The notes: generated by a model from the sequence alone, not told the origin. A stretch of DNA of 64,000 nucleotides from Planctomycetota bacterium (GCA_965223265.1 OZ244999.1:6176001-6240000), one strand, 5' to 3'. Shown: positions 19,227-55,378, counted from the first letter of the stretch. Numbers and translations are program-made.

Positions 19227-19311
19227 GCGGCGGGTCAGACTCCGACGATCTCAGTTTCTCTCCGACAGATCTGCATATCAGCCGACGTGCAGACCTTCGA
19301 AGGCCAATCGA

Positions 19312-20430: not shown

Positions 20431-20472
20431 GGTGAGTGCCTCCTAACAATACCAACATTCCGCCACCGTTAG

Positions 20473-20632
20473 CAGCCCGCCTGAAAAAGTCATTCGGCCG
20501 AAGAAATTGGCCTCTTCACGCCCAGACGGGCCGCGTCAATACTCGAATCCCGAAGATTGCCTGCGTTTGCCGCGGCCGATCTGGACGCGAAGAGAGCCAG
20601 TTTTCGGCTCGAGGCACCTCTTCAACAGGCTG
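20473..20632 (-). mobile_element. MITE copy 2 (inverted), between murF and mraY
   Basis: Reverse-complement match to copy 1; ends CAGCCCGCCTGAAAAAGT...TTCAACAGGCTG; flanks TTAG/TCAG. Confidence 0.8.
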
Positions 20633-22183
20633 TCAGCCGTAGTTGGTGATCGACGCACCTAACTGTGCTGGCGTTTCCCCCACCTGCACATGAAGCGATG
20701 GTAGGCGTGGGCCGAACAGCTTCGTCCAGCGCGCCAGATCCTTGAAACAAGACTCGACGCCGATCCGGCGCGACCCCTTAAAGAGAAGAACGTCGCCGGG
20801 GTAAATCTGGCCACGCAGAAACCTTGTCACGTCTTCGACGCGCGGGAAGTGGCGTCCGATGGCCTTGCCGCCGGCGGCACGGTAACCGTCTTGAATCGCA
20901 CGACTCTCATCGCCGACGGTGACGAGCAGACGCAAGTTCTGCTTGGCGAGCCGGCGCCCGATCTGCTCATGCAAAAGCCTCGACTTGCTGCCAAGCTCGA
21001 GCATGTCGCCAAGAACGACGATGCCGCTGCGCGGGGCAACGTCGCCAGAGCTCAATCGCGTCGAGATGCTGCCACCGATGGGCTCCTGCGTCAACTCGAT
21101 CCACTCCTCGATCGCCGACTCGACACTGCGCGGGTTGGCGTTGTAGCTATCGTTGATCATGACGATGCCCTTGACTTCAACCACTTCCAAACGCAGCGGT
21201 GGGAGTCGGCACGTGGTCAATGCCGCGCGCAGCTCGTTCGTCGTCAGGCCGAACTCGCGCGCGACCGCCATCGCAGCGACCGCGTTGATCACGTTGTGGC
21301 GCCCGGGAAGCGGCAGCAGAAAGTTCTCACTCTCATTAAGCGTAAAGTGATAGCCGTACGCCTTGGCTCCGGTCGTCGAGCGGACGTCTCCAAGTGAGAC
21401 ACGCTGGCAGCTGCTGACTCGCAGGTCTCCCTCGCCCCAGCCGAACGTGCGCACCTCCCCTTTTGCCAGGCTGCAAAGGGTGTTGAAACCAAAGACGCCG
21501 TGGCGCAGGAACGTCGTGCCGCCCGGTTTCAGGCCCGTGAAGATCTCCGACTTAGCGGCCAAGACGCCAGCTAGGTCGTTCAAGCCGTCGAGATGCGCCG
21601 GCGCGATCTCCGTCACAACGACATGGTCAGGTCGCACGAGACGCGACAGAGCTGCGAGCTCGCCCGGACCCGACGTTCCGAGCTCCGTGACGAGCACCTC
21701 GGTGTGAGCTCCCGCAGAGAGCAACGTCAGGGCGACGCCAAGGCGGTTGTTGTAACTCTTCGGTGCCTGCGAGACCTGGAAACGCTCGCGCAAGACGCTG
21801 GCGACGAACTCCTTCGTGCTTGTCTTGCCGACGCTACCGGTGATGGCAACCACCTTCATGTCGAGTCGATCGCGATTCCAGCGCGCCAAACGCTCAAGCG
21901 CGTCGAGAGGATCCGGTACGGACACGTAGGGACCGGAGTCTCGCGGCAGCCGCGACAGTTCGCTGCTGGCAACGACACATGCCACCGCGCCGTTTTTCCG
22001 TGCAGCTTCGACGTAGCGGTGCCCGTCAAACCGCTCACCCTTGAGCGCGAAGAAGAGCGGCTGTCCGGTGAGACCACGTGAGTCGGTGCTCACTTCTGCA
22101 ACGAGCGTCTTCGGAGGCGTCGCGGTCCCAACCCACTGCCCACCCATCTGTTCGACGATCCGGCTGAGTTCAACGGGTTCCAT
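20633..22183 (-). CDS. murF: UDP-MurNAc-tripeptide--D-Ala-D-Ala ligase
   Basis: LKGERFDGH, ITGSVGKTSTKE, SYNNRLG, INDSYNANP, VLGDMLELG, FKGSR. Confidence 0.95.
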   Translation of the reverse strand: MEPVELSRIVEQMGGQWVGTATPPKTLVAEVSTDSRGLTGQPLFFALKGERFDGHRYVEAARKNGAVACVVASSELSRLPRDSGPYVSVPDPLDALERLARWNRDRLDMKVVAITGSVGKTSTKEFVASVLRERFQVSQAPKSYNNRLGVALTLLSAGAHTEVLVTELGTSGPGELAALSRLVRPDHVVVTEIAPAHLDGLNDLAGVLAAKSEIFTGLKPGGTTFLRHGVFGFNTLCSLAKGEVRTFGWGEGDLRVSSCQRVSLGDVRSTTGAKAYGYHFTLNESENFLLPLPGRHNVINAVAAMAVAREFGLTTNELRAALTTCRLPPLRLEVVEVKGIVMINDSYNANPRSVESAIEEWIELTQEPIGGSISTRLSSGDVAPRSGIVVLGDMLELGSKSRLLHEQIGRRLAKQNLRLLVTVGDESRAIQDGYRAAGGKAIGRHFPRVEDVTRFLRGQIYPGDVLLFKGSRRIGVESCFKDLARWTKLFGPRLPSLHVQVGETPAQLGASITNYG

Positions 22184-22189
22184 CGAGTC

Positions 22190-23719
22190 TCAATTCCCTC
22201 CGATACCTTCGCTCAAAAACTCCGCCGCCACTTCGCGATCGTCAAAGTGCAGTTTGCTGCCGTCGAACTCCTGGTACGTCTCATGTCCCTTCCCCGCTAT
22301 GAGCACCGTGTCTCCAGCGCGTGCCATACGAATCGCGAGTGCAATTGCATCGCGCCGATTGGGCTCCAAGACGACATCGTCGGGGCGCGCCAGTCCGCAG
22401 CGAATGTCCGACAGGATCGACTCTGGATTCTCAGAGCGTGGGTTGTCAGAAGTGACGACGATGTGATCGGAGCCGCGTTCCGCCACGCGGCCCATGCGCG
22501 GTCGCTTCTCGCGATCGCGGTCGCCGCCGCAGCCAAAGACCGTGATGACCCGCCCCGTCGTCACGCCGCGAACTGCACTGAGCACGGTCTCGAGCGCACC
22601 GTCGGTGTGGGCGTAGTCGACGAAGACGCGGACATTGCGGCGATTCGGCACCTCCTGCAGCCGCCCAGGAGGTGCTGCCGCCACTTCGACGCCGGCAGCG
22701 ATCTCGGCCGCCGTCAAGCCGAGGCAATCCGCCGCCGTCACCGCCGCCAGGATGTTGAGCAGATTGTGCTCGCCCCAAAGACGCGTTCGCATCGGCTCGC
22801 CCCGCCAGACAAACGAAGTTCCATCCGGCGCCATGCGCACGTCTTCGACGCCATCTTGAGGCTCTGTTCCGTACCATACGACCTCGGCCGGAGTCGCACT
22901 GCGGAGCACCGCTGCGTACTCGTCCTCACGCGGCAAAATGGCGTGCGCGTCGGGTCGAAGATCGCAGAAAAGCTGCTTCTTGGTGGCGAAGTAGTTCTCG
23001 AACGTGCCGTGATAGTCGAGGTGCTCAGGCGCAATGTTCGTGAAGATCGCGGACGAGAGGTCGAAACCGGCGGTTCTCTTTTGCGCGATGCCGTGTGAAG
23101 AGACCTCCATGACGACGTGCGAGCCACCGGAGTCGACCAGCTGTCGGAACGCCTCATGCAATTCAAGGCTTGACGGTGTCGTGTTGTGCGCCGGCGTCGC
23201 GGTCATGCCAACGCGATTGTGCACGGTACCGAACAGCCCCGTGATCCGCCCACTCGTGCGCAGGATCGCCTCCAAAATCCAGGCCGTCGTCGTTTTCCCC
23301 TTGGTGCCAGTAATGCCGACGATCTCGAGGGCACCATGCGCGTGGCCATAAAACGTGGCTCCGAGCGCACCGAGGGCGGTGCGCGCGTCGTCGACGCGGA
23401 AGTACGGCACGGGAAAGGGCGCCGTCTCGCAGCGACCATTGGCCCCACCGCGCGTCGCGTTCGGCTGCGCCGCCTCGGACCTGCCGGCACCCACCGTCGA
23501 AACGAGGCGCCGCACGGGCTGCTCCCCGACAATCGCAACGGCGCCTGCAGCGACCGCCTGCCTCACAAAACCGTGTCCGTCCACTTGCTCGCCGGGCACC
23601 GCAACGAACAGCGAACCAGGTCTCACCTGACGTGAATCGCACGTCAGATGTTCGACTTCGACGTCGCGACGAGCTGCCGAAACCTTCAAGCAGCCCTCGC
23701 CCAATTCCTCGAGTCGCAT
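22190..23719 (-). CDS. murE: UDP-MurNAc-L-Ala-D-Glu--meso-DAP ligase
   Basis: GITGTKGKTT, TTP, MEVSSH, HLDYH, VDYAHT, FGCGGDRD, DNPR (DAP-type), AGKGHE. Confidence 0.95.
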   Translation of the reverse strand: MRLEELGEGCLKVSAARRDVEVEHLTCDSRQVRPGSLFVAVPGEQVDGHGFVRQAVAAGAVAIVGEQPVRRLVSTVGAGRSEAAQPNATRGGANGRCETAPFPVPYFRVDDARTALGALGATFYGHAHGALEIVGITGTKGKTTTAWILEAILRTSGRITGLFGTVHNRVGMTATPAHNTTPSSLELHEAFRQLVDSGGSHVVMEVSSHGIAQKRTAGFDLSSAIFTNIAPEHLDYHGTFENYFATKKQLFCDLRPDAHAILPREDEYAAVLRSATPAEVVWYGTEPQDGVEDVRMAPDGTSFVWRGEPMRTRLWGEHNLLNILAAVTAADCLGLTAAEIAAGVEVAAAPPGRLQEVPNRRNVRVFVDYAHTDGALETVLSAVRGVTTGRVITVFGCGGDRDREKRPRMGRVAERGSDHIVVTSDNPRSENPESILSDIRCGLARPDDVVLEPNRRDAIALAIRMARAGDTVLIAGKGHETYQEFDGSKLHFDDREVAAEFLSEGIGGN

Positions 23720-23994
23720 GTTCACCTCTCCACTCCGTTGACTCTCGTTACGCGTCGCTGCAACCGCACCACCGTAGGTCAACCGCTCTTCTTGCCGTCG
23801 AGCGCTCCACGGATCCGTGCTCGCAGACGCCGCCGAGCCTCCTCTGCTCGTTAGTCGCGGCACGTGTCTTCGCGAAGACACCCGCGGCGCCGGGTCCACA
23901 GCGGTCGCTATCGTACTGAAAACCTCTCTGCCTCGAGCGAGAAATTCAGTTCATTTCACTCGATCTGCTGACATTCAGACTCCAAGCTCCAAGA

Positions 23995-25839
23995 CTACTG
24001 TTCATTCCCCTTCCAAACTGCGAAACTCGCCAGATGGCACTCCTCGGCGACGTTGAAAATCCCACGTAGCACCTCAACGACCACCGGTCCGGCGACCATC
24101 GCGCCGTAGATGCTCTTCTTCGGCCGCTCGACCATGCAAACCACGACGACCTGGGGATCATCGTGTGGTGCGAACGCCTCGAACGATGCTAGGTAGTAGC
24201 GCCCGTAGGATCCGCCGCGTGCCATCCTCGCGGTGCCCGTTTTGGCGCCGAACCGAAAGCCCTCGACGCGGAGCCACTTCGCGGTTCCTGTCTCGACGAC
24301 TTCGGTCAAGAGCTCCCGCATGGTGGCGGACGTCGCCGGCGAGATCGGGTGCCCGATGACCTCCGCCTTCGGCGCCCTGTAGTTGCCGCCGGCATGCTCG
24401 ATGCGTTTGACGATGTACGGCTTGAGAAGCTTGCCGCCGTTGACGACGGCCGCGAAGGCACGCGCCAGTTGAATGGGCGTCACACGAATGGCGTAACCGA
24501 ACGAGACGGACACCGTCGCAAGGAACGGCTTCCATCTCTCGGGGCTACGATGTTCGCCGTTCACCTCGGCGGGCAGCGCCAGCCCGGTACGACGACAGAA
24601 CTGAAAACGTTCGATCATGTCGAGAATGCGATCCTTACCGAGTCGCAACCCGAGCACTGACATGCCGATGTTGGAGGACCTCGTCAATGCATCGCGAACT
24701 CGCATGTCGGGTGTCGGCTTCACATCGCGCACCGTTCGAGAACCAAATTTCGCGCGCTCGCTCCCGTCCCAAGTCACGCCGGGCGGCATGAGGGAGCGAA
24801 TCGACTGATCGAGGCTCGCAAGACCGTGCTCCAGCACACTCGCCATGAGAAACGGCTTCATAACCGAACCCGACTCGTAGGTGCTCTCCACGATCCGGTT
24901 GGTTCTTCGAAGCTCACGTTCAGCCTTCGGATAGTCGTGGAAACGGTTCGGGTTGAACGTGGGGAAATTCGCCAGCGCCAAGACCTCGCCGGTACGACAG
25001 TCGAGGACCACACAGGAACCCGCTTGCGCGTTCATGCGGCGAACGCCCCACTCGAGTTTCTCTTCGACGATCGCCTGGATCCGGCTATCAATCGTCGTGT
25101 AGACGACACCCCCATCGACCGGCAAGATCTGTGGGTTACCGGGGTTAAAAATCCGTAGCGGCCCGACGCGCTTGCCGCCGACCTGAACCTGTCTGACGCC
25201 ATCGCGCGGCGATAGGTGCCGATCGAGCTGGCGTTCGACACCCTCGATGCCCTCCCCTTCTCGGTTCGTCACACCGATCACTGACGCGGCGAACGTGTCG
25301 CGGGGATACGTACGTCGCACGTACGACGACCTGCAAAAGCTGCGAGCGGCTGCTGGTAAGACCTCGGAGATCTGCTTCTGCAGAGAATCGACGACGTCGT
25401 AGTCGAGATCGCGGTCAAGTGCAACGTACTTGCGACCACTCGCGTGCGCCTCAAGGGCGACCCTGAGTCGGCGTCGCCGGTACTCATTCGACTTCCCAAG
25501 CTCCGCGCACACCAGTTGAATGACGCGGTGAATGTTCTCCGATGCGATCTTCGATGGATCTAGCCCAATCTCGTACTTTTTGACGTCCCGGGCCAAGAGG
25601 ACACCGTCTGATGTGAACACATCGCCGCGATATCCGTGCAGCGGATCATGTCGCGTCTGCATGCTTGCTGCGGAGAGGTCTCGACGTTCGTGATCGACGA
25701 CTTGCACGAAAAACAGGCGCCAGCCTAAAAGGCCAAAACCTAACGTCACGAAGCAGGCGATCATGATCAGACGCACACGCAATCCGAGTCTCGACACCTC
25801 CGCTCCTCGCGGCGCCCGTCGTTTCGTCTTAGTCTTCAC
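23995..25839 (-). CDS. ftsI: Class B penicillin-binding protein FtsI/PBP3
   Basis: N-terminal TM, dimerisation domain, SxxK (ESGSVMKP), SSN, KTGTA. Start approximate (GTG 25839). Confidence 0.9.
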   Translation of the reverse strand: MKTKTKRRAPRGAEVSRLGLRVRLIMIACFVTLGFGLLGWRLFFVQVVDHERRDLSAASMQTRHDPLHGYRGDVFTSDGVLLARDVKKYEIGLDPSKIASENIHRVIQLVCAELGKSNEYRRRRLRVALEAHASGRKYVALDRDLDYDVVDSLQKQISEVLPAAARSFCRSSYVRRTYPRDTFAASVIGVTNREGEGIEGVERQLDRHLSPRDGVRQVQVGGKRVGPLRIFNPGNPQILPVDGGVVYTTIDSRIQAIVEEKLEWGVRRMNAQAGSCVVLDCRTGEVLALANFPTFNPNRFHDYPKAERELRRTNRIVESTYESGSVMKPFLMASVLEHGLASLDQSIRSLMPPGVTWDGSERAKFGSRTVRDVKPTPDMRVRDALTRSSNIGMSVLGLRLGKDRILDMIERFQFCRRTGLALPAEVNGEHRSPERWKPFLATVSVSFGYAIRVTPIQLARAFAAVVNGGKLLKPYIVKRIEHAGGNYRAPKAEVIGHPISPATSATMRELLTEVVETGTAKWLRVEGFRFGAKTGTARMARGGSYGRYYLASFEAFAPHDDPQVVVVCMVERPKKSIYGAMVAGPVVVEVLRGIFNVAEECHLASFAVWKGNEQ

Positions 25840-26075
25840 CTCATCGACTCCCGGATTCGTCGCTCGAGCTGCCGCACCCGAAAAGGAGGGAGAAGGGGGA
25901 CAAAGTCCCCCTTCACGTTGGTAGGAAAGATGGGAGTTCCAAGGCACCGCCGCAGGGGCGACGGCAGCTGAATTCTCACGTTTCGATGTCGTCTCGAGCC
26001 GGCGTTCTCCCCACTGCTCCCAAAAACTGGCGAGCGAAGTGGTTTCTTACCGTCATGTGTTAGCAGGCATTCAGA

Positions 26076-26342
26076 TCACTCAAGGCGGTCGGAACCTTCC
26101 TGTTCGCCAGCGGTCGACCGCAATCGTTCTTCTGGCACTTCTTGCAGCAGCAGATCAGGACTGCAGAGGGTGAGTAAACGGGCTTCGAGGCGTCGCAGGC
26201 TCTCACGCCGCTCCTCCTCTTCGACGAGAAGCTCACGAAGCCTCACTCCACAGCGAACACGCTCCACCTGGAGATACACCGCAGCCAGGCCGATCGTCAC
26301 GATGGTGAGTGCGACGAGCAGCCCCCTGAGCCACGCAGACAT
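26076..26342 (-). CDS. FtsL-like small bitopic coiled-coil protein
   Basis: TM plus leucine heptads, located between rsmH and ftsI; GGAG RBS. Confidence 0.65.
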   Translation of the reverse strand: MSAWLRGLLVALTIVTIGLAAVYLQVERVRCGVRLRELLVEEEERRESLRRLEARLLTLCSPDLLLQEVPEERLRSTAGEQEGSDRLE

Positions 26343-26569
26343 CAGTCCGCTCCTCCACCCAGGGGAACCACCGTCGACAACGTCGCTTCACTTCTCTTCA
26401 CGTCCTCTTGCCTCGTCACCCCTCAAGAGAGGCCACAGCATGAGGCGACCGCCGTAGCTGGCCGCCTCATGCCGCGCCCGAGCTTCTACCTTCACTTCGT
26501 TTCTAAGAGCGTCTCCTCCTCTGAGACTCCGTCCCTCTCCTCTTTCGTTTCAGATCATTCCGTCACGTC

Positions 26570-27496
26570 CTACTTCTCTTCCGAGTCGCCTCCAGCTGCG
26601 ACCCGAATCGCAAAGCGCAGTCGAGCGCTGCGCGCCCGTGGGTTCGCTTCGACCTCCTCAGCCGAAGGCCGAAGCGGCTGGTCACTAGGTACGGAAAAGA
26701 GCCCACTGCGACGCATTTGTGTGCACCACCTCTTGACGAGGCGGTCCTCGAGCGAGTGGTAGCTGAGAATCGCCACTCGGCCTCCCGGTCGCAGGACCCG
26801 GTCCAGTCGCGGCAAGAGTCGCTCAAGTTCGCCCAGCTCGTCGTTGACGGCGATGCGAATGGCTTGAAACACGCGCGTCGCTGGATGGATTCTTCCGCGC
26901 CGGCCTGGTACGACGTCCTCGACCAACCGCGCCAACTCGCTGCAATGTCGCAAGGGAGCACGCTGACGCGTGGCGTCGATGCGTTCGGCAATGCGGCGCG
27001 CTGCCGGCTCCTCTCCGAAGCGCCGCAGGACCTGCTCGATCTCTCGGCGGGTGGCCGTGCGCAAGAAATCCGCAGCGCGCTGGCCGGAACCTCGGTCCAT
27101 GCGCATATCGAGCGGCCCCTCACGCGCGAAGCTGAAGCCGCGTTCGGCGCGGTCGAGCTGCATCGACGAAACTCCCAGGTCGAGTAATAGACCATCAACC
27201 GCGCCCTCCGCTGGCAGCCCGACCTGCCGCAGGCATTCCTGTAGCTGCGAGAAACGCCCCTGAGCGACATGGAACGTGCCGCCACCTGTCTCGAGGCGGC
27301 TGGCGGCAAGCTCGAGAGCGTCCTCGTCGCGATCGACTCCTAGCAGAAACCCAGACGGAGCGACCCGCTGCGAAAGCGCGACCGCGTGCCCCCCGGCGCC
27401 GAGCGTCGCGTCGACAAACGTCTCCCCGGGCGCCGGCCGCAAGACCGCCAGCACTTCGGTCAGCATCACTGGCTGGTGAGGCAGTCTTTTGGTCAT
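26570..27496 (-). CDS. rsmH: 16S rRNA m4C1402 methyltransferase RsmH
   Basis: HQPVML, DATLGAGGH, DLGVSSMQLD..RGFSF..GPLDMRM, SYHSLEDR, NPRARSA. Confidence 0.97.
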   Translation of the reverse strand: MTKRLPHQPVMLTEVLAVLRPAPGETFVDATLGAGGHAVALSQRVAPSGFLLGVDRDEDALELAASRLETGGGTFHVAQGRFSQLQECLRQVGLPAEGAVDGLLLDLGVSSMQLDRAERGFSFAREGPLDMRMDRGSGQRAADFLRTATRREIEQVLRRFGEEPAARRIAERIDATRQRAPLRHCSELARLVEDVVPGRRGRIHPATRVFQAIRIAVNDELGELERLLPRLDRVLRPGGRVAILSYHSLEDRLVKRWCTQMRRSGLFSVPSDQPLRPSAEEVEANPRARSARLRFAIRVAAGGDSEEK

Positions 27497-40354: not shown

Positions 40355-40927
40355 ATGAACTCCCCCGACGCCCAAACGCGAGCCAGAAAGTCCGAAGACT
40401 GCGAGCTCGTCCATCGAACCCGCCGCGGCGAGACGGCTGCCTTCGAGGCTCTCATCGCCAAATACCAACGCGCTGTCTTCAACATCGCGCTCTACAAGAG
40501 TAAGAATCATTTCGACGCCGAAGATCTAGTCCAAGACATCTTTCTCGCCGCGTACCGCGCCCTCGAGACGCTTCGTTCGCCGGAGAACTTTTCGAGCTGG
40601 CTGTTCGGGATCGCATACAACCGCTGCCACAAATGGTTCCAGCGCGAGCGAACGAAAGTCGTCAAGTTTGAAGTGCTGCGGCAGCGCGTTGCACGCGAGA
40701 CACGCCTACAGCAGCGTGCGAACTCCAGTGAGGACGTGCCGCTGTCCGAGTCACTGGCGCGCGTGCCGACCGAGATCCGCACGGTGCTTCGTTTTAAATA
40801 CCTCGAAGGATTGAGCTACCAAGAAATCGAAGAGCGAATGGGAATCAATGCGCACCGGATCGACTATCTGATTCGCAAAGGCAAACAAATGCTCCGTGAG
40901 CGCATGACGAAGAGCGAAGAACGATGA
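40355..40927 (+). CDS. ECF RNA polymerase sigma factor
   Basis: AFEALIAKYQ, DAEDLVQDIFLAAY, FSSWLFGIAYN, EGLSYQEI region 4. Confidence 0.93.
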   Translation: MNSPDAQTRARKSEDCELVHRTRRGETAAFEALIAKYQRAVFNIALYKSKNHFDAEDLVQDIFLAAYRALETLRSPENFSSWLFGIAYNRCHKWFQRERTKVVKFEVLRQRVARETRLQQRANSSEDVPLSESLARVPTEIRTVLRFKYLEGLSYQEIEERMGINAHRIDYLIRKGKQMLRERMTKSEER

Positions 40928-41940
40928 CGAAGCGAAGCGACGACAACCTCAGTAAGCCGAACTTCTCCTTGGACGACTCCGCATCGGGCAAGGCAGATCA
41001 CCTTGACCCGAGCGACGATGCGTTCGACTCGTCACTGGTCGATCTGACCGCCCGCCGCTGCGATGCGCTGCGCTCTCACTATCATCACTACGTCGAGAAT
41101 GAGCTGGACCCGCTGCGAGTCCGGATGGTGGATGCCCACCTCGGAGCTTGCGACAAATGTCGCGAGGAAGTGGAGTACCTCCAGCTCGAGAAGCTGTGGG
41201 TTATGGAGACCGTGCTCGACGCGCCAGAGCTCTCGGACCGCCTGACGGAGAAGATCGTTGCGGCTGTTCATGCAGAACGCCGCGACCTCAACTCACGGTG
41301 GTTTTTGCGCGTCAGCGCGAGCATTGCGGCTGTAGCGCTTGCCGGCGTGCTCGCCGTGTTCGCCGGAGGCGCCTCGATCGAGACGCCCGAAATCGTCTCC
41401 GAGAAGCAGATACACCTGCCGCCCGGAACCATCCACGTACGCTCTGCCGGTAAAAGTCGCGACAGAAACGAGCTCCCGCGAGCTCGGCTCGTCCATTACA
41501 ACGCGTCATCGGGCATCTCGACGACGCATGGCTACCCTTGGACACTTCCGGCACCGCGCCGCCATGCAGCTCGCTGCGACTACCCGGCCTCGGCGTACCG
41601 CGTCGCTGTGCGGGTCAAATCGCCGCGCGACCGTATCCGCAAGCTCACTCCGCTCGCCTCGCGCGCAGACGTCGTCGTCTTCGTGCGGATGCCTCGGCGA
41701 GGACGTATCAGCTTGAGGGATACGGTCAACGTCGCTCTACGTTTCGCTCGCGGCACTCCTGCGGTCGAACGCGATCTCGAGTCGTGCGAGCCAGACCCGA
41801 ACGCGGACGGCAAACTGGATATCGATGACATCGCATACGGTCTCCAGGTACTATACGGGGCTCAAACGCCGGAGGCCGTCGCCTTGGGTGACGAGTCATC
41901 GCAGGAGAACGAGTGCGATGCCGCGTGCGCTCGTGCGTGA
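40924..41940 (+). CDS. Zinc-finger (HxxxCxxC) transmembrane anti-sigma factor with C-terminal dockerin-like domain
   Basis: HLGACDKC; TM ASIAAVALAGVLAVFA; CEPDPNADGKLDIDDIAYGLQVLYG; ATGA overlap with the sigma gene. Confidence 0.85.
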   Translation: MTKRSDDNLSKPNFSLDDSASGKADHLDPSDDAFDSSLVDLTARRCDALRSHYHHYVENELDPLRVRMVDAHLGACDKCREEVEYLQLEKLWVMETVLDAPELSDRLTEKIVAAVHAERRDLNSRWFLRVSASIAAVALAGVLAVFAGGASIETPEIVSEKQIHLPPGTIHVRSAGKSRDRNELPRARLVHYNASSGISTTHGYPWTLPAPRRHAARCDYPASAYRVAVRVKSPRDRIRKLTPLASRADVVVFVRMPRRGRISLRDTVNVALRFARGTPAVERDLESCEPDPNADGKLDIDDIAYGLQVLYGAQTPEAVALGDESSQENECDAACARA

Positions 41941-42075
41941 CGCTCCAATGCGTCCATCAACCATTTGAGGATGCCTGGAGGTCGAACTCAGCGGCGACGC
42001 GACTTATCATTCGGCCCTTACGAGTTCGATTCAAACAAGATGAACGTGTACCTATCGTTCGGAGGATCTTTGAAC

Positions 42076-43542
42076 GTGACTTTCCCTGAAAAACATCGAC
42101 AAGAACGAAGCCCTCGTCGCCACGCTCGTTCTTTCGTCGTGACCGCGCTGCTTTTCGGCTGCGCGCTGTTGCTAGTGAGCCAGCCGCCGACCGTGAGCTC
42201 GGCGAGCGAAGGCGAAAGCACGAAGCGATTCTTCTTGGCATACAGCGTCAACAACGCAGGTTTCACCGACACCTGTGGCTGACCAAAGAAAAAGATCAAG
42301 CTGGGCAGTTTGCCCAGACGCATGACTTACCTCCAGCAGCTTCGTGGCTTCGGTGTCCCAACACTCTTGGTTGACGGTGGCAACGTTTTCTATCGTACGC
42401 TCACGAAGAAAGCACCCGATCGAGGCAAAGAGCTGACGCTGTGGAACCACGCTCGCGTCATTCTCAATGCGTACAACCTACTCGGCTATCAGGCGGTCGC
42501 CGTCGGCCCGGAGGACCTCCAGCTTGGTTTGAACCGCCTGCAGGAACTGGCCAACAAGGCACACTTTCCGTTTGTCTGCGCAAACTTGGTGGACAAGAAG
42601 ACGAAACAACCGTATTTCGAGCCCTATACGATCGTGAACGTCAACGGTTTGCGCGTCGGCGTCTATGGCATGCTGCAACAGCGGCTCAATCCAACGATCC
42701 GCGAGCGGGCCATTCCGGACGGCGAAATCCTACCGCCGATCGAAACGACGAAGCGAATTGTTGCGGAGATGAAGGCGAAGTGTGACGCCATCATCGGTCT
42801 TTCCCACCTGCACGAAGAGACCAACTCCAAAATCCTCGAGGAAGTCCCAGAGATTACCGCACTCGTCGATCCGGCGTCGCGCCATGGGTTCAAGACCGTC
42901 TGGATCCACTCTGAGGAGGACTACAGCCGGGACTTCGGCGGACGTCCGCGCCTGCGCATCGATGGGCAAGGCTCGCGGATCGGCATCGCTGATCTCACCG
43001 TGTCAAAGTCGAGCAAGAAACCTTCGAGTTATACGGGATACCATGTACCGATCGAGCCGCACATCATGCGGCACCCGGTGATGACTGAATTGCTGACATT
43101 CGTGCGTGCTGGTCGCGACTACCCTCTTGATCGCAAGCGCGATGCCCATTCAATGTATCCGTTCGACGACGCACTCGGAGCAGCGACGTGCGGCTCATGC
43201 CATCCCGAACAACTCGAGTTCTGGAAGTCGACGTCCCACGCCTCAAATTTCCACACCCTTGAGGCGACCGGCGACCAAGCCAACTCCGATTGCGTTGGCT
43301 GCCATTCGCTTGGCTATGGCGTCACATTCGTGAACGCCGCCGACGCGAAGAATTTCAAGGAAGTGCAGTGCGAAAACTGCCACGGTATTGTACGGGGCCA
43401 CGCCGAGGACCCGGAGAAGCACCGATTCGGGGAGGTCGGCGAACGCACGTGCGTCGGCTGTCACAACAAGGATTACACACAGAAAGACTTCGACTACGAG
43501 GACGCGCGTCCGCGAGCGTCCTGCCCGACTTCGGCCAAGTAG
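42076..43542 (+). CDS. Probable selenoprotein: UshA/5'-nucleotidase-fold domain with C-G-U motif fused to tetraheme cytochrome c
   Basis: Track ORFs 41965-42282 and 42310-43542 are in one frame, separated only by TGA 42280-42282: DTCG*PKKKIKLGSLPRR aligns with DVCGCKHKQVRQGSLTRR of the next gene; signal peptide; four CxxCH; GGAGGA RBS at 42061. Confidence 0.85.
42301..42317 (+). promoter_or_regulatory. Candidate bacterial SECIS hairpin
   Basis: CTGGGCA-GTT-TGCCCAG perfect stem starting 18 nt after the TGA, with GU in the apical loop. Confidence 0.7.
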
Positions 43543-43575
43543 TCGCTGCGAACCCGCGTCAAGGAGTCAAGGACC

Positions 43576-45072
43576 ATGCGAAAATCAGCAGTCGTCGTGA
43601 CGCTTTTCGGCTTGACGGTTGTGCTGTCAGGAAGCGGTCAAGTCGAGGCAGAAAAACCAGCGCGATTCACCCTCGTCTACAACGTCAACAACTCCGGATA
43701 CATCGATGTCTGCGGCTGCAAGCACAAGCAGGTCCGCCAGGGAAGTCTGACGCGACGTTCGAGTTTCCTCAAACAGCTCCACGCGACGGGACGAAACCTA
43801 CTCCTCCTCGATGGCGGCAGCTCGCTCTTCAAGGTCGGCGAACTGATCAAGAAAGAACAGCGCGACGAAGCGATCCGCAAGGCTCAGCTCATCGTCGAAG
43901 CCTACAATCGGATGGGATACCATGCCATGGCTGTGGGCCCAGCCGATCTTTACGCCGGACTGGATGAAACTCTCGCCCTCAGGAAGAAGGCAAAATTCAA
44001 ATTCCTATCCGCGAACGCCTACGACAAGAACACGGGCAAGCTCCTCTTCGAGCCGCATGCTGTATTCGAAGTCGGCGGCGCGAGAGTCGGCGTGATCGGC
44101 CTCACGCTGCAGACGATTTCAAAACCGTTCTTACGGCGCATCGGCTCGCGATTTGAAGTGCGTGACGCAGAGACCGCTCTTAGGGAGTCTATCGAAGCCC
44201 TCAAACCAAAGACGGACTCGCTGATCGTCTTGTGCCACGAACGAGAAGAGGTCAGTAAGAAGTTCGCTGCAGCATTCCCGGAAATCCACATGTTGGTCGA
44301 TCCTTACATTCAGTACGGCAACCACCACACTTGGATCAAGAAACACGAGTGGCTCGACCGAGTCGAGGAGACTGTCTTCCTGCGCAGTGACGGACAAGGC
44401 GCTCGACTCGGCGTCGTTGACGTCGAGCTCAAACATGGTAGCCGTCCGCTCGTCTCACGCATCGACCTGGAAGATCTCGCTGCCGCGGTCGCCGCTGCCG
44501 ATGCCAATGTCACCGACGCCGACAAGGAGAAGCTGATTTCCTGGCGTGCGTTCAATCCCTTCGATTTTCAGCGCGTCTCGCTCGAGCCGCATCACCTCTC
44601 CGACCCCGACATCGATCGTCTCGTCGACGAATGGAAAAAGAATGTCGACCCGAGCAAAGTAGCGCGGCTAGAGGCAGAGCTGCCGCGGCGCGCTGAGTAC
44701 GCGACCGCAGACAAGTGCAAGGGCTGCCACGAAACGCAATACGACTGGTGGAAAAAGACGCGTCATGCGACAGCCTTCGCCACGCTGCAGCGCACAGGCG
44801 ATCATCAGCGCTTCGACTGTATTGGCTGCCACACGTTGGGTTACGGCGAAGCATTTCTCAACACGACCGCGGTCGGCGAATTCGCAGATGTGCAGTGTGA
44901 GTCGTGTCACGGCACGAACCCGAAACATCTCGAGAGCCCGGCGACCCATAGCTACCGCAAGATCACTAAGCACGATTGCCTTGTCTGTCACAACAAAGAG
45001 CAAACGCTAAAAGACTTTGCGTTCGCAGCGGCGCGGCGGAGAATCGCCTGTCCGAGCTCGAAGAAGTCATAA
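43576..45072 (+). CDS. UshA-fold (C-G-C) + tetraheme cytochrome c protein, Cys paralog
   Basis: Signal peptide; YIDVCGC; LLLDGGS; CKGCH, CIGCH, CESCH, CLVCH. Confidence 0.9.
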   Translation: MRKSAVVVTLFGLTVVLSGSGQVEAEKPARFTLVYNVNNSGYIDVCGCKHKQVRQGSLTRRSSFLKQLHATGRNLLLLDGGSSLFKVGELIKKEQRDEAIRKAQLIVEAYNRMGYHAMAVGPADLYAGLDETLALRKKAKFKFLSANAYDKNTGKLLFEPHAVFEVGGARVGVIGLTLQTISKPFLRRIGSRFEVRDAETALRESIEALKPKTDSLIVLCHEREEVSKKFAAAFPEIHMLVDPYIQYGNHHTWIKKHEWLDRVEETVFLRSDGQGARLGVVDVELKHGSRPLVSRIDLEDLAAAVAAADANVTDADKEKLISWRAFNPFDFQRVSLEPHHLSDPDIDRLVDEWKKNVDPSKVARLEAELPRRAEYATADKCKGCHETQYDWWKKTRHATAFATLQRTGDHQRFDCIGCHTLGYGEAFLNTTAVGEFADVQCESCHGTNPKHLESPATHSYRKITKHDCLVCHNKEQTLKDFAFAAARRRIACPSSKKS

Positions 45073-45099: not shown

Positions 45100-46164
45100 A
45101 TGAACCAAAAAGGGCCCCGTGCGGTGGTCATCGGGGGAGGCGTGATCGGCCTGGCCGTCGCACGTGAGCTCGAAGCGTTGGAGTTCAACGTCACTGTGCT
45201 CGAACGGCGACAGTTCGGGCGTGAGGCTTCGTATGCGGCGGCCGGCATGCTCGCGCCGGAACTCGAATTCACGCCCGACGACGAACTCTTCACGATGGCT
45301 TCGGAGTCGCTCGCGCTCTACCCCGACTTCGCGGCGACGCTCGAGGCCGAAGTTTCGCAAATCGTCGACCTACGACTGAGTGGAATCGTTCGACCTCTCA
45401 TGGGGTCGCCCGCGGCTGGAGAGGTAGGAGAGTCGGAGGCAACGCATTCCTACCCAAGCGTCGAACGACTGGAAGGCAATGCGCTGCGCCGATTGGAACC
45501 GGAGTTGGCCAACGAATTCACGACGGCTGAGCTTTTTCATGGCCACGGCAGTGTCGACAACCGCGCCCTCGTCGACGCGCTTGCTCGGTCGTGCCAGTGC
45601 CGCGGCGTCGAGCTGCGCGCCGCTACGACCGCTACTGAAGTCACGAGTAAAAACGATCGCGTCACGGGTGTCATCACCGACGGCGGCCCGATCGCGGCGG
45701 ACATGGTGGTCAACTGCGCCGGCGCATGGGCCAGCGATGTTGCTGTCGATGGAGCGGCCGTCGCAACGCATCCGGTCAAAGGTCAGATGTTGCTCGTTCG
45801 CTGCCCGCAGCCGGTCCTCGAACACGTGATCTACTCGCACTTGGTCTACCTCGTGCCTCGTAGTGACGGCCGAGTCGTGGTCGGCACAACGGTCGAGGAA
45901 CGCGGTTACAATAAAGACGTGGAAGCGTGGGCACTCGAGCGACTTCTGAAGGGTGCTCTGACGGTGTGCCCGGCCCTCAAGGAATCGCGCTTCGTCGAAG
46001 CTTGGGCTGGGCTGCGACCTCAAATCGCTCAAAAGAGTCCGCAAATCTGTGCCGCCGGTCCGCTGGGCTACTTTCTCGCTTGTGGGCACTACCGAAACGG
46101 CGTACTGCTGGCGCCGATCACAGCGAAACGAGTTGCCGCATTAGTGCGGCAAGCCAGCGATTGA
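45100..46164 (+). CDS. thiO: Glycine oxidase ThiO / FAD-dependent oxidoreductase
   Basis: VIGGGVIG, ASYAAAGML, NCAGAWA, PVKGQM, YLVPR.DG, WAGLRP, GHYRNGVLLAPITA. Confidence 0.88.
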   Translation: MNQKGPRAVVIGGGVIGLAVARELEALEFNVTVLERRQFGREASYAAAGMLAPELEFTPDDELFTMASESLALYPDFAATLEAEVSQIVDLRLSGIVRPLMGSPAAGEVGESEATHSYPSVERLEGNALRRLEPELANEFTTAELFHGHGSVDNRALVDALARSCQCRGVELRAATTATEVTSKNDRVTGVITDGGPIAADMVVNCAGAWASDVAVDGAAVATHPVKGQMLLVRCPQPVLEHVIYSHLVYLVPRSDGRVVVGTTVEERGYNKDVEAWALERLLKGALTVCPALKESRFVEAWAGLRPQIAQKSPQICAAGPLGYFLACGHYRNGVLLAPITAKRVAALVRQASD

Positions 46165-49703: not shown

Positions 49704-52700
49704 TTGCCACTTTGGCAACGACCCGCGGGAATCCTTTCAGCGGCAACGGCGACGAGAACTTCTGTGGACCCTTCTGCGGCGGCGCCCTCGGGCGCTCAGA
49801 TCCCGGCACGATACACCGTCCTCGGCGACTTGGGTGGAGGCGGCATGGGGCAGGTGTATCGCGTCCGCGACCACTTCACAGGTCAAGTTGTGGCACTCAA
49901 AGTTGTGCGCGAGACCTCCCCGGAGGACGTTCAGCTCTTTCGGCGGGAGATCGTCACGCTCAGCTCCCTCTGGCACGAGTCGATTGTGCGCTTCTTCGAC
50001 GCCGGTGTCTGCGGTGACGATTTCTACTTCACAATGGAGCTCGTCGAGGGTTCGTCTCTTGAGCAGTTCATCAGCCCTGCCGCGGCTGCGGCTGCCGATG
50101 TGAAATGGATCTTGGCGGTCGTCGTTCAGCTCCTGGACGCACTCAGCCATCTCCACGAGAGAGGCTTGCTGCACCGCGACATCAAGCCAAGCAACGTCGT
50201 CGCGTTGACGGCGCCGCCCCAGAGCGCCCTCCAGTCCACAAGCGCGGCGCAAATCAAATTGATCGACTTCGGCCTAGCTGCCCAGCGACGCTCCATCGCC
50301 TCCGGACCAGACGCGAGCGTCGGCACACCAGTCTACATGGCGCCGGAACAACTACGCGGCCACACGACGATCGACGAACGCGCCGACCTCTTCTCCGTCG
50401 GCGCAATGGCCTATCACCTTCTCACGGGGTCTCCCCCGCGAACCTCGCTGCGGGATGCGGTCGCCGGCGAGCCACCGATCGACCGCTATCCGCAAGACTG
50501 CCCGAGGCGAGCCGTCGACCTCATCCGTGAGCTGCTTGCGAACGAGCGACATGAACGCCCAGCGTCCGCCGCAGCTGCGCGTGAACGCCTACTCGCCGCG
50601 CTGGAGCCCGAAGACCGGCGCCGCATCGAAGCGCCGCGTATCCGTTTGCCATCGTTCGTCGGTCGTCAAGGCGAAGTCGCCGCGCTCACCAACGTCGTGC
50701 GGAGCGCTGCCGACGGTCGTAGTGGATTCGTTCGGCTGACAGGAGATCGCGGAAGCGGCAAGTCCTGGGTGCTCCACCACAGCGGTCTCAAGGCGGTCGC
50801 CTTCGGCGACCTCGGGACACTCACCGTCGGCTGTCGATTTCGTGCCGACGACTCCGGGGCAGGCCTGCGTGAGCTCTATTCCCAGCTCCTGGCGCACTTC
50901 GACGAGCATTCCGCCTCTGACGCACTCCGCGACCATCACGGCGCCGAGGCAGTTGACGACTTTGTCTCGACGTTTGGAGTGCAGACGCGGCCAGACGCTA
51001 CGACGACGGCGACGTCGCTGGCCGATGACATCCCCCCACACGTGCGTCGAGAACGGCTGCTCACTCTTGCCATCGAAATCGTCCGCGCGGCAAGCGGGCG
51101 ACAACCCCTACTTCTCGTCGTCGACGATGTGCATCACGCCGGCGAGTTCGCGCTCGAGTTTTTTTCTCGCTTGCGGCATTCGATCGGCACCATGCGCGTC
51201 GCGGTCGTGCTCAGTCATCGCCCACAACCCGAGAGCTCCGCCGTACAGATCGATTCCACGCCGTTCGCGTCGTTTCTTGAGCAACTAGACGATGTCGACG
51301 TCGTGACACTGCCTCCGCTGACTGACGGCGAGGTGAGTCAACTGATCGACTCGATGCTCTTCCCGTCAGTGATCTCCAAAACATGCCGCGACGCGCTGAC
51401 CCAACGCTCCGGGGGGTGGCCTGGTGCAGTCGTCAGCGACATCCAGCTGGTGTGGAGCAGGCGACGACTCCGATTCCAGGACGGTGCGTGGTGCTGGGAC
51501 CGGAAGGAGAGCGCAGGTGCCGACGCGAGTCTCGAGAAAGTCGAGCTCGACGGCCTCACAGACCTCGAGCGCGACGTGCTCCTCGGCGTGAAAGTCCTTG
51601 GCCCCCCGGTGACGAGACTTCATCTGGCAACGTTCGTGACGATCCTCAGAGAGCTCTCGACCTCATCAGGTCGTGACATAGCGACAGCCGAAGTGAACGA
51701 CGATGGGCGCCTCGACACCACGGCAGCACGCCTGAGCGCCGAGCGAATCGAAGCAGTCGGCGGCAGAGTCGCAGCACAACCGGCGGTTCAGAGACTGATC
51801 TCACAAGGCCTCCTTGTCGAGGCAGAAGACGGGATTGACATGTCTCCCACGCTGAGGGACACGAAGCTCGAATCGACTCGCCAGCCGAGACTTCTTGAAG
51901 TCGCAGGTGCGCAGGCACTCATCGCGCTGCATGCAAGCGACCTCGAGGCGAACGCTCTGAGAATCGCCCAACTCCTCCACGCCGGCGGCGAAATCGCTAT
52001 AGCGCACGGCTACTTCGTACTCTCCGCTCGCAGCGCGAGTAGGCTCTACGCCAACAGTCGCGCGCGCCACAGCTATCAGGCAGCCATCGAAACGGCCCCC
52101 GATGTAGGACGCCAACGTGCGGTCTACATCGAGTTCGGCGAGTTTCTGCTGCGTCTTGGCGAATACGACGAAGCGCTTCGAGCATTCCAGGACTCCAGCG
52201 GGGTCGACATCGAGACGTTCGACGCAGGACGCACACTGGCAGCAGACGTCGACCCGGGGATGCTCGAGCGCATCGGCAAGGTACTCCACTTACAAGGTCA
52301 CTACGAAACGGCGCTACGCGTATTCGAAACCTATCTCGAGCTCGCAGGATCCGACTCGATACATCTTGCGAAGGCGCAGCTTCGTTTGGGAGAGATTCAC
52401 TTCGAAAGCGGTGACAGCCAACGCGCGAGCGAATGCTTCGAACACAGCCTCAAGCTCTACGAGTCGCTGGGTGACGCGCCGAACATCGCCAAGGTGCAGA
52501 GCCAACTCGGTCTTGTCGCTAAGCAGCGAGGAGACATCCGCGCAGCAATCGAACGGTTCGAGAGCGCGCTGGAGAACGCAGAGCGAGCCGGTCACGCCGT
52601 CGCGACCGCCACGGCTCTGAACAACCTCGGAAACATCCACCGCGCACAAGGTGACGATGAGCTCGCTTTGGACTTCTTACGGCGCTCAGTTGAATCACGC

Positions 52701-53606
52701 CGCCGGGCTGGTGACCGTGGCGGCGTCGCGATTTCTTTAACCAGTATCGCGCAGGTGCATTTTTATCGAGGCGAATTCAAGAACGCAGTTGAACGCAATG
52801 AAAGCGCGCTTCGTGTCTTTCGTGAAGTTGGCAACCAGAAGGGCGTCCTCGTGGCCGGCTGCAATCTGGCTGAGTCGCAGCGCATGGTCGGCGATTTCAA
52901 ATTGGCACGAGAGCAAACTGAACAAAACCTTCAACTCGCCGACGATCTTAAGATGACGTCGATTCGGCCAGCAGCCCTCACAAGCCTCGCCAACTTGGAG
53001 GTGGACATCGGCAACTATGGCGCTGCGGTCGAGATTCTCGAGCGCTGCCTGAGCGAGCTACCGCCGGGCAAGCTGCCACAGCACCGCCTCGAAGCGCTCA
53101 CCGCGTTGAGCTGGGCGCACTTACGCCTGAGGGATTACTCAAGAGCACGCCAGCTGTTCGACGACTGCGAGTCGGCGCTTCAGTCGAGCAACGCGAATGA
53201 AAAACGTGGCGAACTGACTGCCGTGCGCGTTCGCCTCGAGAACGAAGCCGGTGACGCCGAAAGGGCCGTCAAGGTTGGCCGTCAGTTTCTCGAGCACACG
53301 GAGTTCGGCGTCGAGCGCTTTGGATCGGCGTGTCTACGGCGCGAGCTCGGAAGAGCGTTCCGGAGTGTTGGGCCGGAGTGGGCTGATCAGACCGAGAAGC
53401 ATCTCTTCGCAGCTCGAAAGGAGTTCCAAGACATGTCGAGCCCCCACAACGTCGCTGAAATCGACTTCGAGATCGGCGTCTACTGGGGTCTCTTTGGCGA
53501 GAACGAAGAGGCCGGGGAATTCTTCAGCCGCTCAAAGCAGACTTTTTTGCGTCTCAACGCGCCACTGCGCTCCGCTTTGATCGGCAAATCGAGGAGTCGC
53601 GCATGA
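49704..53606 (+). CDS. Ser/Thr protein kinase with AAA/STAND-like ATPase and TPR repeats
   Basis: [31 protein letters not shown]; Walker A GDRGSGKS; Walker B LLVVDDVH; C-terminal TPRs. Start uncertain. Confidence 0.92.
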
Positions 53607-55378
53607 GCCAGGTAAGCTACCGAAGAAAAGCGATTCTAAGCCGCGTCCACAGCGCCCTCGACGCGTTCTATCTGCTCCAAGACATCGATTGGGACTATGA
53701 CGTCTATGCAACGCTCGAGAGGATCGTGGCTCTAGCCGTCGAAGAAATCGAGCTCGAAGACGACGCCCAGATCGAACGTGGATTGATTATTCTGCGAAAC
53801 CGCGGTGTTGGCGAGCTGGAAGTTCACGCGGGCTGGAAGACAGAAGAACTGGACCTGCAGTTCAGCCGCACGGTCGTGGAAGAAACGATCGCAACGCAGC
53901 AGCCGATTTTGTGCGAGAACGCCAAAGACGATCCGCGCTTCATGGAAGCTGAGAGCATCAAGGAGCTGGCGACTCTCTCGCTCATCTCTGTGCCGTTGAG
54001 CTTCGAGCAGCAATGTATCGGTGCGTTCTACATCGAGAGTAAGAGCCCGGGCAATCTCTTCAGCCCGTCGGATCTCGAGTTCCTTCAGGATTTCGCCAGA
54101 ACGATCGCCCCCTACTTGAAGACCGCTCTCACGCATCAAGGTCACCTCGGAACGATCCGCAAGCTACGAGAAGAGATTCAAGACTCGTATCGATTTCGCA
54201 ATCTGATCGGAAGAAGCGAATCGATGCACGCGATCTTTGAACTTATGCGCATAGCGGCGGACGTTGACCGAACCGTCCTTTTGACGGGAGAATCGGGCTG
54301 CGGCAAGGAGCTGATTGCTCATGCGATTCACTACAACGGCCGGCGCCGCAACCACCCCTTCGTGGTCGTCGATTGCTCCGGTCTGTCGGAGAACTTGCTC
54401 GAGAGTGAGCTCTTTGGTCACTGCCGCGGCGCTTTCACTGGCGCCTCGACCGACAAGACGGGAGCGTTCGAGGCCGCCAACCAAGGCACGATCTTCCTCG
54501 ACGAGATTAGCGATGCATCGAAGTCGATGCAGCAGAAGCTACGAAGAGTCTTACAGGAAGGCGAGATTCGGCGCGTCGGCGACAATCAAGTACGCGAAGT
54601 CGACGTTCGTGTTATCTGTGCGACCAACAAGAACCTTGACGACCTGGTGCGCGCCGGCGAATTCATTCGCGACCTCTACTTCAGAATCAACAAGTTCCCG
54701 ATCCGCATTCCCCCGCTTCGAGACCGGCGGGAGGATGTCCCTGCACTCGTCGACCACTTCGTCAAGAACGCAGCGGAGCAAGTCGACAAACCCGTGCCGA
54801 GTGTTGCCCCGAGCGCAATGGCGGCCCTGATGAGTCGTGACTGGTCAGAGAACAACGTGCGCGAACTGCGCAACGTCGTCGAGCTCGCAATCGATCTTTC
54901 GTCTAACGACGAAGTTTCCGCAAAGACGATCGAACGCGTCTTCAGCATCCAGGCCGGCACGTACACCCCGCGACGCTCCAGCAGTAAAACGACGCCCACG
55001 ACCCACAATGACCGAAGTGCGCTCGTTCAAATCCACACGGATTCCTTCCGCCGCCTTCTTGAGGAGTCGGAAGCGAACGAAAGTCCACGCGACAAGAAAG
55101 AAACACCTTTCTATCTGCTCCAGCTCGAGTCAGCCGCACGTGCGATCCTGGAGGGCCTTCGATCGTCGAAGTGGAAACTACGTCCGGCCGCACGCCTCCT
55201 CGGCATCAGCCCCACAAAGCTGCGCACTGAGCTGAGGGACTTTCTCGAACGCAGCTTGGCGGAAGACGATGGCGACCTCTCCCGCACCTCACGCCGCCTC
55301 GACATCCCCGAAGAGGTGCTCCAAAAGAAGGCGCGAGATCTTGGGCTCGAGTCGTTGGCTTCAGGAGAACAGAAATGA
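53603..55378 (+). CDS. GAF-domain sigma54-dependent enhancer-binding protein
   Basis: GAF domain (NAKDDPRF), [42 protein letters not shown]; C-terminal HTH(s). Confidence 0.95.

Follow-up and report, generated by a model that had tools for sequence, protein, structure and literature searches.

Does an in-frame TGA end a gene or encode selenocysteine (Sec, U), and what kind of protein comes to light if it is read through? This question is raised by a locus in a 64,000-nucleotide (nt) stretch of the genome of a Planctomycetota bacterium (GCA_965223265.1 OZ244999.1:6176001-6240000), hereafter the window. A first-pass annotation, made from the sequence alone, had proposed a selenoprotein hidden behind a TGA at 42280-42282 and followed in tandem by a cysteine (Cys) paralogue, both being fusions of an UshA-like fold with a tetrahaem cytochrome c. 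Here, we report that the hidden gene is real, unannotated and in tandem with a Cys paralogue, and that, judging from homologous loci, its UGA is most likely decoded as Sec. The explanation that we favor as a whole comprises a UGA-decoded member of family NF041198 with its Cys paralogue, a lost metal site, a tetrahaem fusion, a tandem linked to an extracytoplasmic function (ECF) sigma factor and a putative redox role, and we consider it probable. The features on which the argument rests are the following, with positions counted from the first letter of the window.

42040-43542, plus strand: selenoprotein gene, about 500 amino acids (aa) with U81; NF041198 score 276.1 bits; AlphaFold2 (AF2) predicted local distance difference test (pLDDT) 82.7; Foldseek matches to 5'-nucleotidases
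42274-42282, plus strand: C-G-U motif codons TGT GGC TGA, with the Sec codon at 42280-42282; no variation at C79, G80 or U/C81 across 63 sequences
42301-42317, plus strand: hairpin resembling a selenocysteine insertion sequence (SECIS), CTGGGCA-GTT-TGCCCAG, with a perfect 7-bp stem and a GUU loop; encodes L-G-S-L-P
43189-43464, plus strand: four CxxCH motifs of the Sec protein in a c554-like domain (43189-43203, 43291-43305, 43369-43383 and 43450-43464)
43576-45072, plus strand: Cys paralogue gene, 498 aa; NF041198 score 299.8 bits; begins 33 nt after the stop of the Sec gene
43711-43719, plus strand: CGC motif of the Cys paralogue (C46-G47-C48)
44716, 44818, 44896 and 44977, plus strand: CxxCH motifs of the Cys paralogue

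An upstream open reading frame (ORF; 41965-42282, plus strand) is terminated by the TGA, and a second ORF (42310-43542) begins 27 nt further on in the same frame. With TGA read as Sec, the frame is open for 500 codons from an ATG at 42040 or for 488 codons from a GTG at 42076, so that the two ORFs do join into a single gene as first proposed. Its start codon is uncertain (41965, 41971, 42040 or 42076, the last being the choice of the first-pass annotation). The read-through product is collinear with the Cys paralogue (35% identity, E 2e-87), and the TGA, within the local motif ...TDTCGUPKK..., aligns with Cys48, the second Cys of the CGC motif (DTCG-U versus DVCG-C), which is where the earlier reading had placed it. 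A scan of the window for further ORF pairs bridged by a single TGA returned ordinary adjacent genes only. TGA is generally not reassigned, given that 23 of the 46 Sec genes found in the census below themselves terminate with TGA and that window genes such as the upstream anti-sigma gene use it as a real stop.

The codon was followed through 79 loci fetched from the genome collection. An alignment over U81/Cys48 was obtained for 92 gene copies, which come from the window and from 60 of these loci; the other 19 fetched loci gave no N-terminal alignment and lie outside the codon census. All 92 copies carry TGA (46), TGC (34) or TGT (12) at this position and no other codon occurs, in agreement with the expectation that homologues would have Cys or TGA here. 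The TGA copies are spread over many phyla, and the flanks are conserved in frame on both sides (for example YTVNNLGYTxTCG upstream and PKKKIKLGSL downstream). In all 46 Sec copies a hydrophobic or lipobox segment at the N terminus is encoded 5' of the TGA, in frame. In the window gene, the part upstream of the TGA codes for the signal peptide as well as for strand beta1 (residues 61-69), and the downstream ORF alone would therefore have no export signal for its four haems. Signal peptides had been claimed for both window proteins. Basic and then hydrophobic N-terminal segments are indeed present by eye in both, and residues 1-53 of the Sec protein are modeled with a pLDDT below 50; both proteins are predicted to be exported.

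The reading has consequences for protein databases. A protein search with the read-through product gave 71 matches. In every one of the closest, at 44-57% identity and 342-418 aa, the N terminus falls just past the TGA; the longer matches (487-564 aa) are 33-37% identical to it and are therefore orthologues of the Cys paralogue. Ten truncated orthologues entered one alignment (A1), all beginning at or past query residue 93, and the protein collection holds the 406-aa ORF of the window itself together with about 30 truncated orthologues. When a representative library of 1.84 billion proteins was scanned with the Cys paralogue, 167 proteins were found at E <= 1e-30; in 38 of the best 150, counted by eye, the alignment opens within the first 10 residues of the protein and at query positions 56-79, immediately past Cys48. 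Truncated annotation of the Sec forms is thus widespread. The gene and dozens of its orthologues are stored as N-terminally truncated, signal-less 'hypothetical proteins', and reading UGA as Sec would restore the full exported enzyme.

The perfect GU-loop hairpin noted earlier at a SECIS-like distance lies 18 nt beyond the TGA, at +19 to +35, and is retained in 30 Planctomycetota Sec genes (27 distinct rows). Across these genes the stem is paired in 89.9% of cells, compared with 32-51% in controls with the 3' arm displaced by 1-3 columns; the pair 24-36 is compensatory (CG 12, GC 12, GU 2), three pairs are invariant and two vary one-sidedly. A paired comparison of synonymous sites is the stronger evidence. 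In the 28 genomes that have both genes, third-position entropy over codons +1 to +12 is 0.68 bits for Sec and 1.35 bits for Cys, whereas outside this stretch the two are alike (Sec/Cys 0.88/0.90 upstream and 1.29/1.29 further downstream). The Gly-Ser codons of the loop are nearly fixed in the Sec genes (GGC in 27/28 and AGT in 28/28), while the Cys genes mix all four Gly codons with several Ser codons (most commonly TCC, TCG, TCT and AGC). By these comparisons the hairpin is conserved beyond coding needs and, going by general rules of distance and loop, has the layout of a bacterial SECIS. The same palindrome is also flagged as terminator-like on the minus strand, as is a 10-bp-stem inverted repeat at 42097-42119, within the signal-peptide coding part of the Sec gene.

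Two explanations would dispense with Sec altogether. The TGA could be a nonsense mutation in a pseudogene or a miscalled TGC or TGT, and it is indeed a single, isolated in-frame stop in a window in which no Sec machinery is seen. However, a TGA found in 46 copies from many phyla, at a position otherwise held by Cys codons only, with open and conserved flanks and with synonymous sites that are specifically constrained after it, makes decay or error extremely improbable. The alternative of two separate genes, a small exported peptide (41965-42282) followed by a 410-aa cytoplasmic protein (42310-43542), is exactly what gene callers put out, and the 406-aa window ORF and its truncated orthologues are stored accordingly. 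It would leave a downstream ORF with four CxxCH motifs and no signal peptide, and it would separate this ORF from strand beta1 and from the invariant C-G upstream of the TGA, although full-length Cys homologues run collinear across the junction; we give it very little credence. The comparison of homologues instead establishes 42040-43542 as one gene, with a UGA at 42280-42282 that selection maintains where the alternative is invariably Cys.

What the gene encodes is a familiar fold without its familiar active site. An AF2 model of the Sec protein, built on the 63-sequence alignment, has a pLDDT of 82.7 and a predicted TM-score (pTM) of 0.82. Of the Foldseek matches listed (top 47), all but one, an uncharacterised YUND-SP5S integrative model, are 5'-nucleotidases or phosphoesterases related to them; the best, 2z1a, has an E value of 2.7e-21 over about 320 aligned columns, and the query-normalised TM-scores over the N-domain are 0.46-0.50 among the matches listed. 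The N-terminal fold of the model is accordingly calcineurin-like. Profile matches in the PDB are to CpdB, UshA and CD73, then to c554 and the nonahaem protein 6i5b, and weakly to SoxB. Alignment to 2z1a, 3jyf and 3gve, combined with residue frequencies in the 63 sequences, confirms that the metallophosphoesterase ligands are degenerate, as had been noted: DxH, GD and GNHE of 5'-nucleotidases are VNN, GGN/GGS and GPED/GPAD in the window proteins. Across the family the Asp of DxH is N or H in Planctomycetota and D in 20 of the 28 others, and its His is replaced; the Asp of GD is D in 21/63, the Asn and His of GNH are replaced, the motif IV His is found in 29/63 and motif V is absent. No position of the UshA di-metal site is thus conserved family-wide. 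The residues that are invariant in the 63 sequences are C79, G80, U/C81, G89, G114, L407, E445, G449, the four CxxCH motifs, H400 and H454, with D112 in 56/63 and D/E159 in 63/63. The C-G-U motif sits in the loop after strand beta1, at the site of the UshA DxH.

At the C terminus, the claim of four haem-binding motifs in each window protein proved exact, and exactly four CxxCH are found in all 92 homologous copies. PF13435 (Cytochrome_C554) is matched at 47.2 bits (Sec) and 46.4 bits (Cys), against a gathering threshold of 20.8. Pfam finds cytochrome families alone, and the 5'-nucleotidase C-terminal substrate domain PF02872 was found by Pfam in neither protein. For four haems there are just two invariant His outside the motifs (H400 and H454), and in the 63 sequences neither Met nor Lys reaches 70% conservation at any position, so that a haem could be five-coordinate or have an unusual ligand. 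The Foldseek and profile matches of the N-domain, together with PF13435, demonstrate that a metallophosphatase fold of the 5'-nucleotidase type has lost its di-metal ligands and is fused to a c554-like tetrahaem domain, as the first reading had it in outline. The family is a clear case of an enzyme fold that loses its metal site and gains a Sec/Cys centre and a haem wire.

The pair is embedded in a conserved gene order, for which two further features are needed.

40355-40927, plus strand: ECF-type sigma-70 factor gene (Pfam Sigma70_r2 and r4_2; TIGR02937 87.6 bits)
40924-41940, plus strand: anti-sigma gene with an HxxxCxxC zinc-finger (HLGACDKC, residues 72-79), one predicted membrane helix and an outer part of about 190 aa

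The anti-sigma gene overlaps the sigma gene by 4 nt and has a weak match to the anti-sigma model NF052375, and the order in the window is ECF sigma, anti-sigma, Sec gene, Cys gene and ThiO. An ECF sigma homologue lies 1-1.5 kb 5' of the Sec gene in 26 loci, and zf-HC2 ORFs equivalent to the anti-sigma gene form two clusters, from 16 and 8 Planctomycetota loci. In 28/28 loci the Cys start lies between -4 and 53 nt from the Sec stop (median 3), and no terminator-like site was found on the plus strand between 39600 and 46400. In a quick maximum-likelihood tree, supported by the Shimodaira-Hasegawa-like approximate likelihood ratio test (SH-aLRT) only, the 35 Planctomycetota rows form one clade (100), within which the 15 Cys paralogues form one sub-clade (99) and the Sec rows two sub-clades (100 and 99) plus locus L028, whose mutual order is unresolved. 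The pair is thus co-inherited as distinct, 35%-identical lineages across Planctomycetota, while on the whole tree the Sec/Cys label changes at least 8 times, at least 5 of these changes being forced by well-supported branches. These comparisons of loci establish for Planctomycetota a tightly spaced tandem, by alignment Sec then Cys, behind an ECF sigma/anti-sigma pair. The arrangement offers a handle on function, as the signal that induces the sigma factor should point to the substrate.

Variations on this arrangement are seen elsewhere. Two Planctomycetota loci (L028 and L029) have a single Sec gene, closer to the Cys-paralogue query, with no partner within 5.9-6 kb downstream. Outside Planctomycetota, tandem duplications have arisen independently in L036 (Sec+Sec, at 4327 and 6052) and L039 (Cys then Sec, at 1738 and 3286), the copies being sisters in each case (each 100 SH-aLRT). 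L035, labelled as a Thermoplasmata archaeon, is a near-identical sister of L037 (Deltaproteobacteria; 100 SH-aLRT, branches 0.16 and 0.10) and is probably a mis-binned bacterial contig. A neighbour survey of the non-Planctomycete loci covered 138 of 145 candidate ORFs; of the seven left out, three were scanned separately and four were short. An AhpC/TSA-redoxin gene adjoins the family gene in 2 loci (L033, 5355-5849; L075, 4200-5552), transsulfuration genes (cystathionine beta-synthase-like and Cys/Met pyridoxal-phosphate enzymes) lie downstream in L039, L041, L042 and L054 (two distant lineages), two multihaem cytochrome genes lie directly downstream in L051 (2414-5773), and sensor kinases occur near the family gene in several non-Planctomycete loci. 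Directly 3' of the Cys paralogue in the window is a gene for glycine oxidase ThiO (45100-46164, plus strand; TIGR02352 294.5 bits, cut-off 250.8). It was considered as a part of the module and rejected, as its synteny is confined to 8 close loci and it is probably unrelated to the Sec/Cys pair.

We propose that Sec would be placed at U81 by SelB-dependent insertion and that the protein would be exported through the Sec export pathway, with haem attachment following in the periplasm. The C-G-U/C pair in the beta1-alpha1 loop would form the reactive centre, a C79/U81 selenol/thiol acting on a small periplasmic substrate and cycling between the selenol/thiol and a selenenylsulfide or substrate adduct, and the four haems could pass electrons from this centre to the respiratory chain or the other way round. 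Taken jointly, export, periplasmic haem attachment, a C-G-U/C reactive centre and a haem electron chain have, in our judgement, about an even chance of being right. A periplasmic selenol/thiol-haem redox enzyme is our best inference, and unproven. The ECF control, the zinc-finger anti-sigma factor and the occasional peroxiredoxin-type neighbours lead us to suggest, tentatively, a role as an envelope redox-stress or sulfur/selenium-compound reductase rather than one in energy metabolism.

How the two proteins relate to each other, and what the C-G-U/C pair does, can be read in other ways. The first-pass annotation had offered a Sec/Cys heterodimer or selenium-conditional isoenzymes, and the second half of this proposal has become the less likely one. 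Sec/Cys switches are frequent in the family, and differentially expressed Sec/Cys pairs are known, FmdB in M. kandleri being an example cited in PMC4807772. The Cys paralogue could hence be a back-up for times of scarce selenium. However, the two genes are neighbours in 28/28 loci (median gap 3 nt), no terminator-like site was found between them, their products share only 35% identity, the Cys paralogues split off long ago as a clade of their own (99 SH-aLRT), and UGA termination under selenium shortage would presumably lie upstream of the very gene that should take over; a back-up role seems to us rather unlikely. The tight tandem points to co-production, and this in turn to a heteromer or two specialised enzymes rather than to a selenium-dependent back-up. 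An obligate Sec/Cys heterodimer, acting as one enzyme with electron exchange between its haem chains, would fit the tight spacing and the co-inheritance across Planctomycetota, as well as the independent duplications in L036 and L039. The single Sec genes of L028 and L029 and the many non-Planctomycete loci with one copy speak against an obligate partner, and we see the heterodimer as a possibility somewhat on the doubtful side.

The Cys/Sec pair might also serve as a ligand, of a haem iron that has no distal His or of another metal in the former di-metal pocket, and not as a redox disulfide. Cys-ligated haems occur in thiosulfate-oxidising cytochromes, the scarcity of conserved His, Met and Lys may leave haems in want of ligands, and C79 and U/C81 are the only other invariant metal-capable side chains; D112 (56/63) and D/E159 (63/63) are retained as well. 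Against this, cytochrome c554 has a five-coordinate haem, which would account for one missing ligand, and CxU in other selenoproteins is usually a redox pair according to the tables of PMC13188914. We consider the ligand reading unlikely. That the proteins are still phosphoesterases or nucleotidases, with the haems as accessories, is suggested by clear homology and by the fold match to 5'-nucleotidases and CpdB, but with no canonical ligand position conserved family-wide (DxH, GD, GNH and motifs IV and V alike) and no 5'-nucleotidase C-terminal substrate domain found by Pfam, this is highly improbable. The boldest version of our own proposal would join a haem-selenolate/thiolate module, in which C-G-U/C is the missing ligand of a haem or its substrate-binding partner, to an obligate Sec/Cys heterodimer acting as an ECF-switched envelope redox-stress or sulfur/selenium oxidoreductase of marine Planctomycetota; we put it forward as a long shot, with little expectation that all of it holds.

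Several observations weigh against the favored explanation of a UGA-decoded NF041198 protein in a redox module. Sec machinery was not found locally: no selA, selB or selD domain was found among 46 window ORFs, ARAGORN found no tRNA of any kind in the 64-kb window, where Rfam also gave no match at the gathering cut-off, and no tRNA-Sec was found by ARAGORN in the 60 loci. Sec decoding in this organism is for this reason deduced and not seen, although PMC4807772 reports complete sets of genes for Sec insertion in several Planctomycetes. Within the hairpin, both-sided change is seen in only 1/7 stem pairs. Sec and Cys genes cannot be told apart by the folding energy after the codon (means of -11.5 versus -11.8 kcal/mol, one-sided p 0.90), as both fold equally well in this G+C-rich region, and the synonymous-site comparison was used in its place. 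A covariance model of the hairpin (R1) recovers only its 30 training sites, with 0/16 non-Planctomycete Sec sites and 0/46 Cys-paralogue sites matched. This indicates that the hairpin sequence is lineage-specific and not a general element; the Sec genes of other phyla carry hairpins about as far from the codon but unlike it in sequence. The Sec protein, scored with C replacing U, exceeds the NF041198 cut-off by just 1.1 bits, the neighbours outside Planctomycetota are heterogeneous and indicate no consistent pathway (138 ORFs surveyed), and no experiment or solved structure for any family member was found in the literature searched.

The remainder of the window holds features at some distance from the pair. 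A cell-wall cluster on the minus strand (14402-27496) encodes an RsmH/MraW methylase, a penicillin-binding protein transpeptidase, three Mur ligases, glycosyltransferases of families GT4 (MraY-type) and GT28 (MurG-type) and a LysM protein; no FtsZ or FtsA domain was found among the 46 window ORFs scanned. A chaperone block, also on the minus strand (5068-10748), comprises GrpE, DnaJ and tandem GroEL paralogues (7241-8845 and 8991-10748), the second of which ends in a Gly-Met repeat. A DDE transposase (PF01609; 31663-32931, minus strand) about 9 kb upstream of the selenoprotein module may mark an insertion sequence, and a 1300-aa Ser/Thr kinase-AAA-TPR protein is encoded at 49704-55378 (plus strand), its stop overlapping the start of a GAF-sigma54 activator by 4 nt.

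Among known systems, the closest is the NCBIfam family NF041198, 'UshA-like (seleno)protein' (UshA_like_PCGU), whose cut-off of 275 bits is passed by both window proteins (Sec 276.1, Cys 299.8). The shared features are the CxU/CxC motif (C79-G80-U81 and C46-G47-C48 in the window proteins), an UshA-like N-domain and a tetrahaem C-domain; the difference is that the window motifs read T-C-G-U and V-C-G-C rather than the P-C-G-U of the model name and of 26/28 non-Planctomycete members. The N-parts match profile positions 9-236 and 6-271 and the isolated C-terminal approximately 130 residues match positions 406-519 (Sec) and 397-513 (Cys) of 519, which means that the haem domain is already part of the curated model. 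The UshA-tetrahaem fusion and the CxU/CxC duality highlighted in the first-pass annotation are real, with both domains and both motifs present, but they are not new. Its statement that UshA-like CxU/CxC (seleno)protein families are known with no established function agrees with the curated model and with the literature. The family has appeared in selenoproteome surveys since 2008 (PMC2398784), where the Global Ocean Sampling selenoproteome places COG0737, UshA-like, CxU, among previously characterised families and counts 76 Sec and 92 Cys sequences for it, and it is tabulated in reviews of 2022 and 2026 (PMC9312934, PMC13188914), one of which names NF041198. In those sections of the three sources that cover it, no function is assigned (PMC2398784, PMC9312934, PMC13188914). 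With 76 Sec sequences in that survey (PMC2398784), it ranks among the commoner selenoproteins of surface-ocean metagenomes and is still without a function. By its profile scores the window pair belongs to this known, curated, published and functionally uncharacterised family. No description of the haem fusion, of the Sec/Cys tandem or of the ECF sigma/anti-sigma link was found in the literature searched, of which supplementary tables may hold more; tables S8/S9 of PMC4807772 (Planctomycetes selenoprotein lists) may already include an orthologue. Two things appear to be new: the ECF sigma/anti-sigma/Sec/Cys gene module conserved in Planctomycetota, and the loss of metal ligands throughout the family alongside an invariant C-G-U/C.

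A second UshA-like selenoprotein family, NF049981 (family 2, CxxU), is matched weakly at the N terminus (32.5 and 31.0 bits, below its cut-off of 140) and differs in its CxxU motif and in a 262-position profile without a haem domain. UshA, 5'-nucleotidase and CpdB (2z1a, 1ush, 3jyf) share the N-fold (Foldseek E about 1e-21; profile E 1e-21 to 1e-23) and the structural motifs GGxARR and SAN, but the window family has no di-metal ligands, carries a tetrahaem domain in place of the C-terminal nucleotide-binding domain and has an invariant C-G-U/C after beta1. The thiosulfohydrolase SoxB (TIGR04486; 2wdc, 4uwq) belongs to the same superfamily and is likewise periplasmic, with a sulfur-compound substrate. 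The similarity is weak (E 9.8e-15 for the Cys paralogue; about 1.5e-6 to PDB chains), and SoxB has no haems and retains a di-manganese site, while the window proteins score 36.6 and 53.8 bits against the TIGR04486 cut-off of 550. The C-terminal approximately 125 residues match the cytochrome c554/NrfA-type module (PF13435; 1bvb), with E values of 1e-5 to c554 and 4e-12 to 6i5b, which from the search listing we take to be OcwA, where the module is repeated. Compared with c554 (211 aa), the window domain is shorter, is fused to an enzyme-like domain and has two invariant distal His only.

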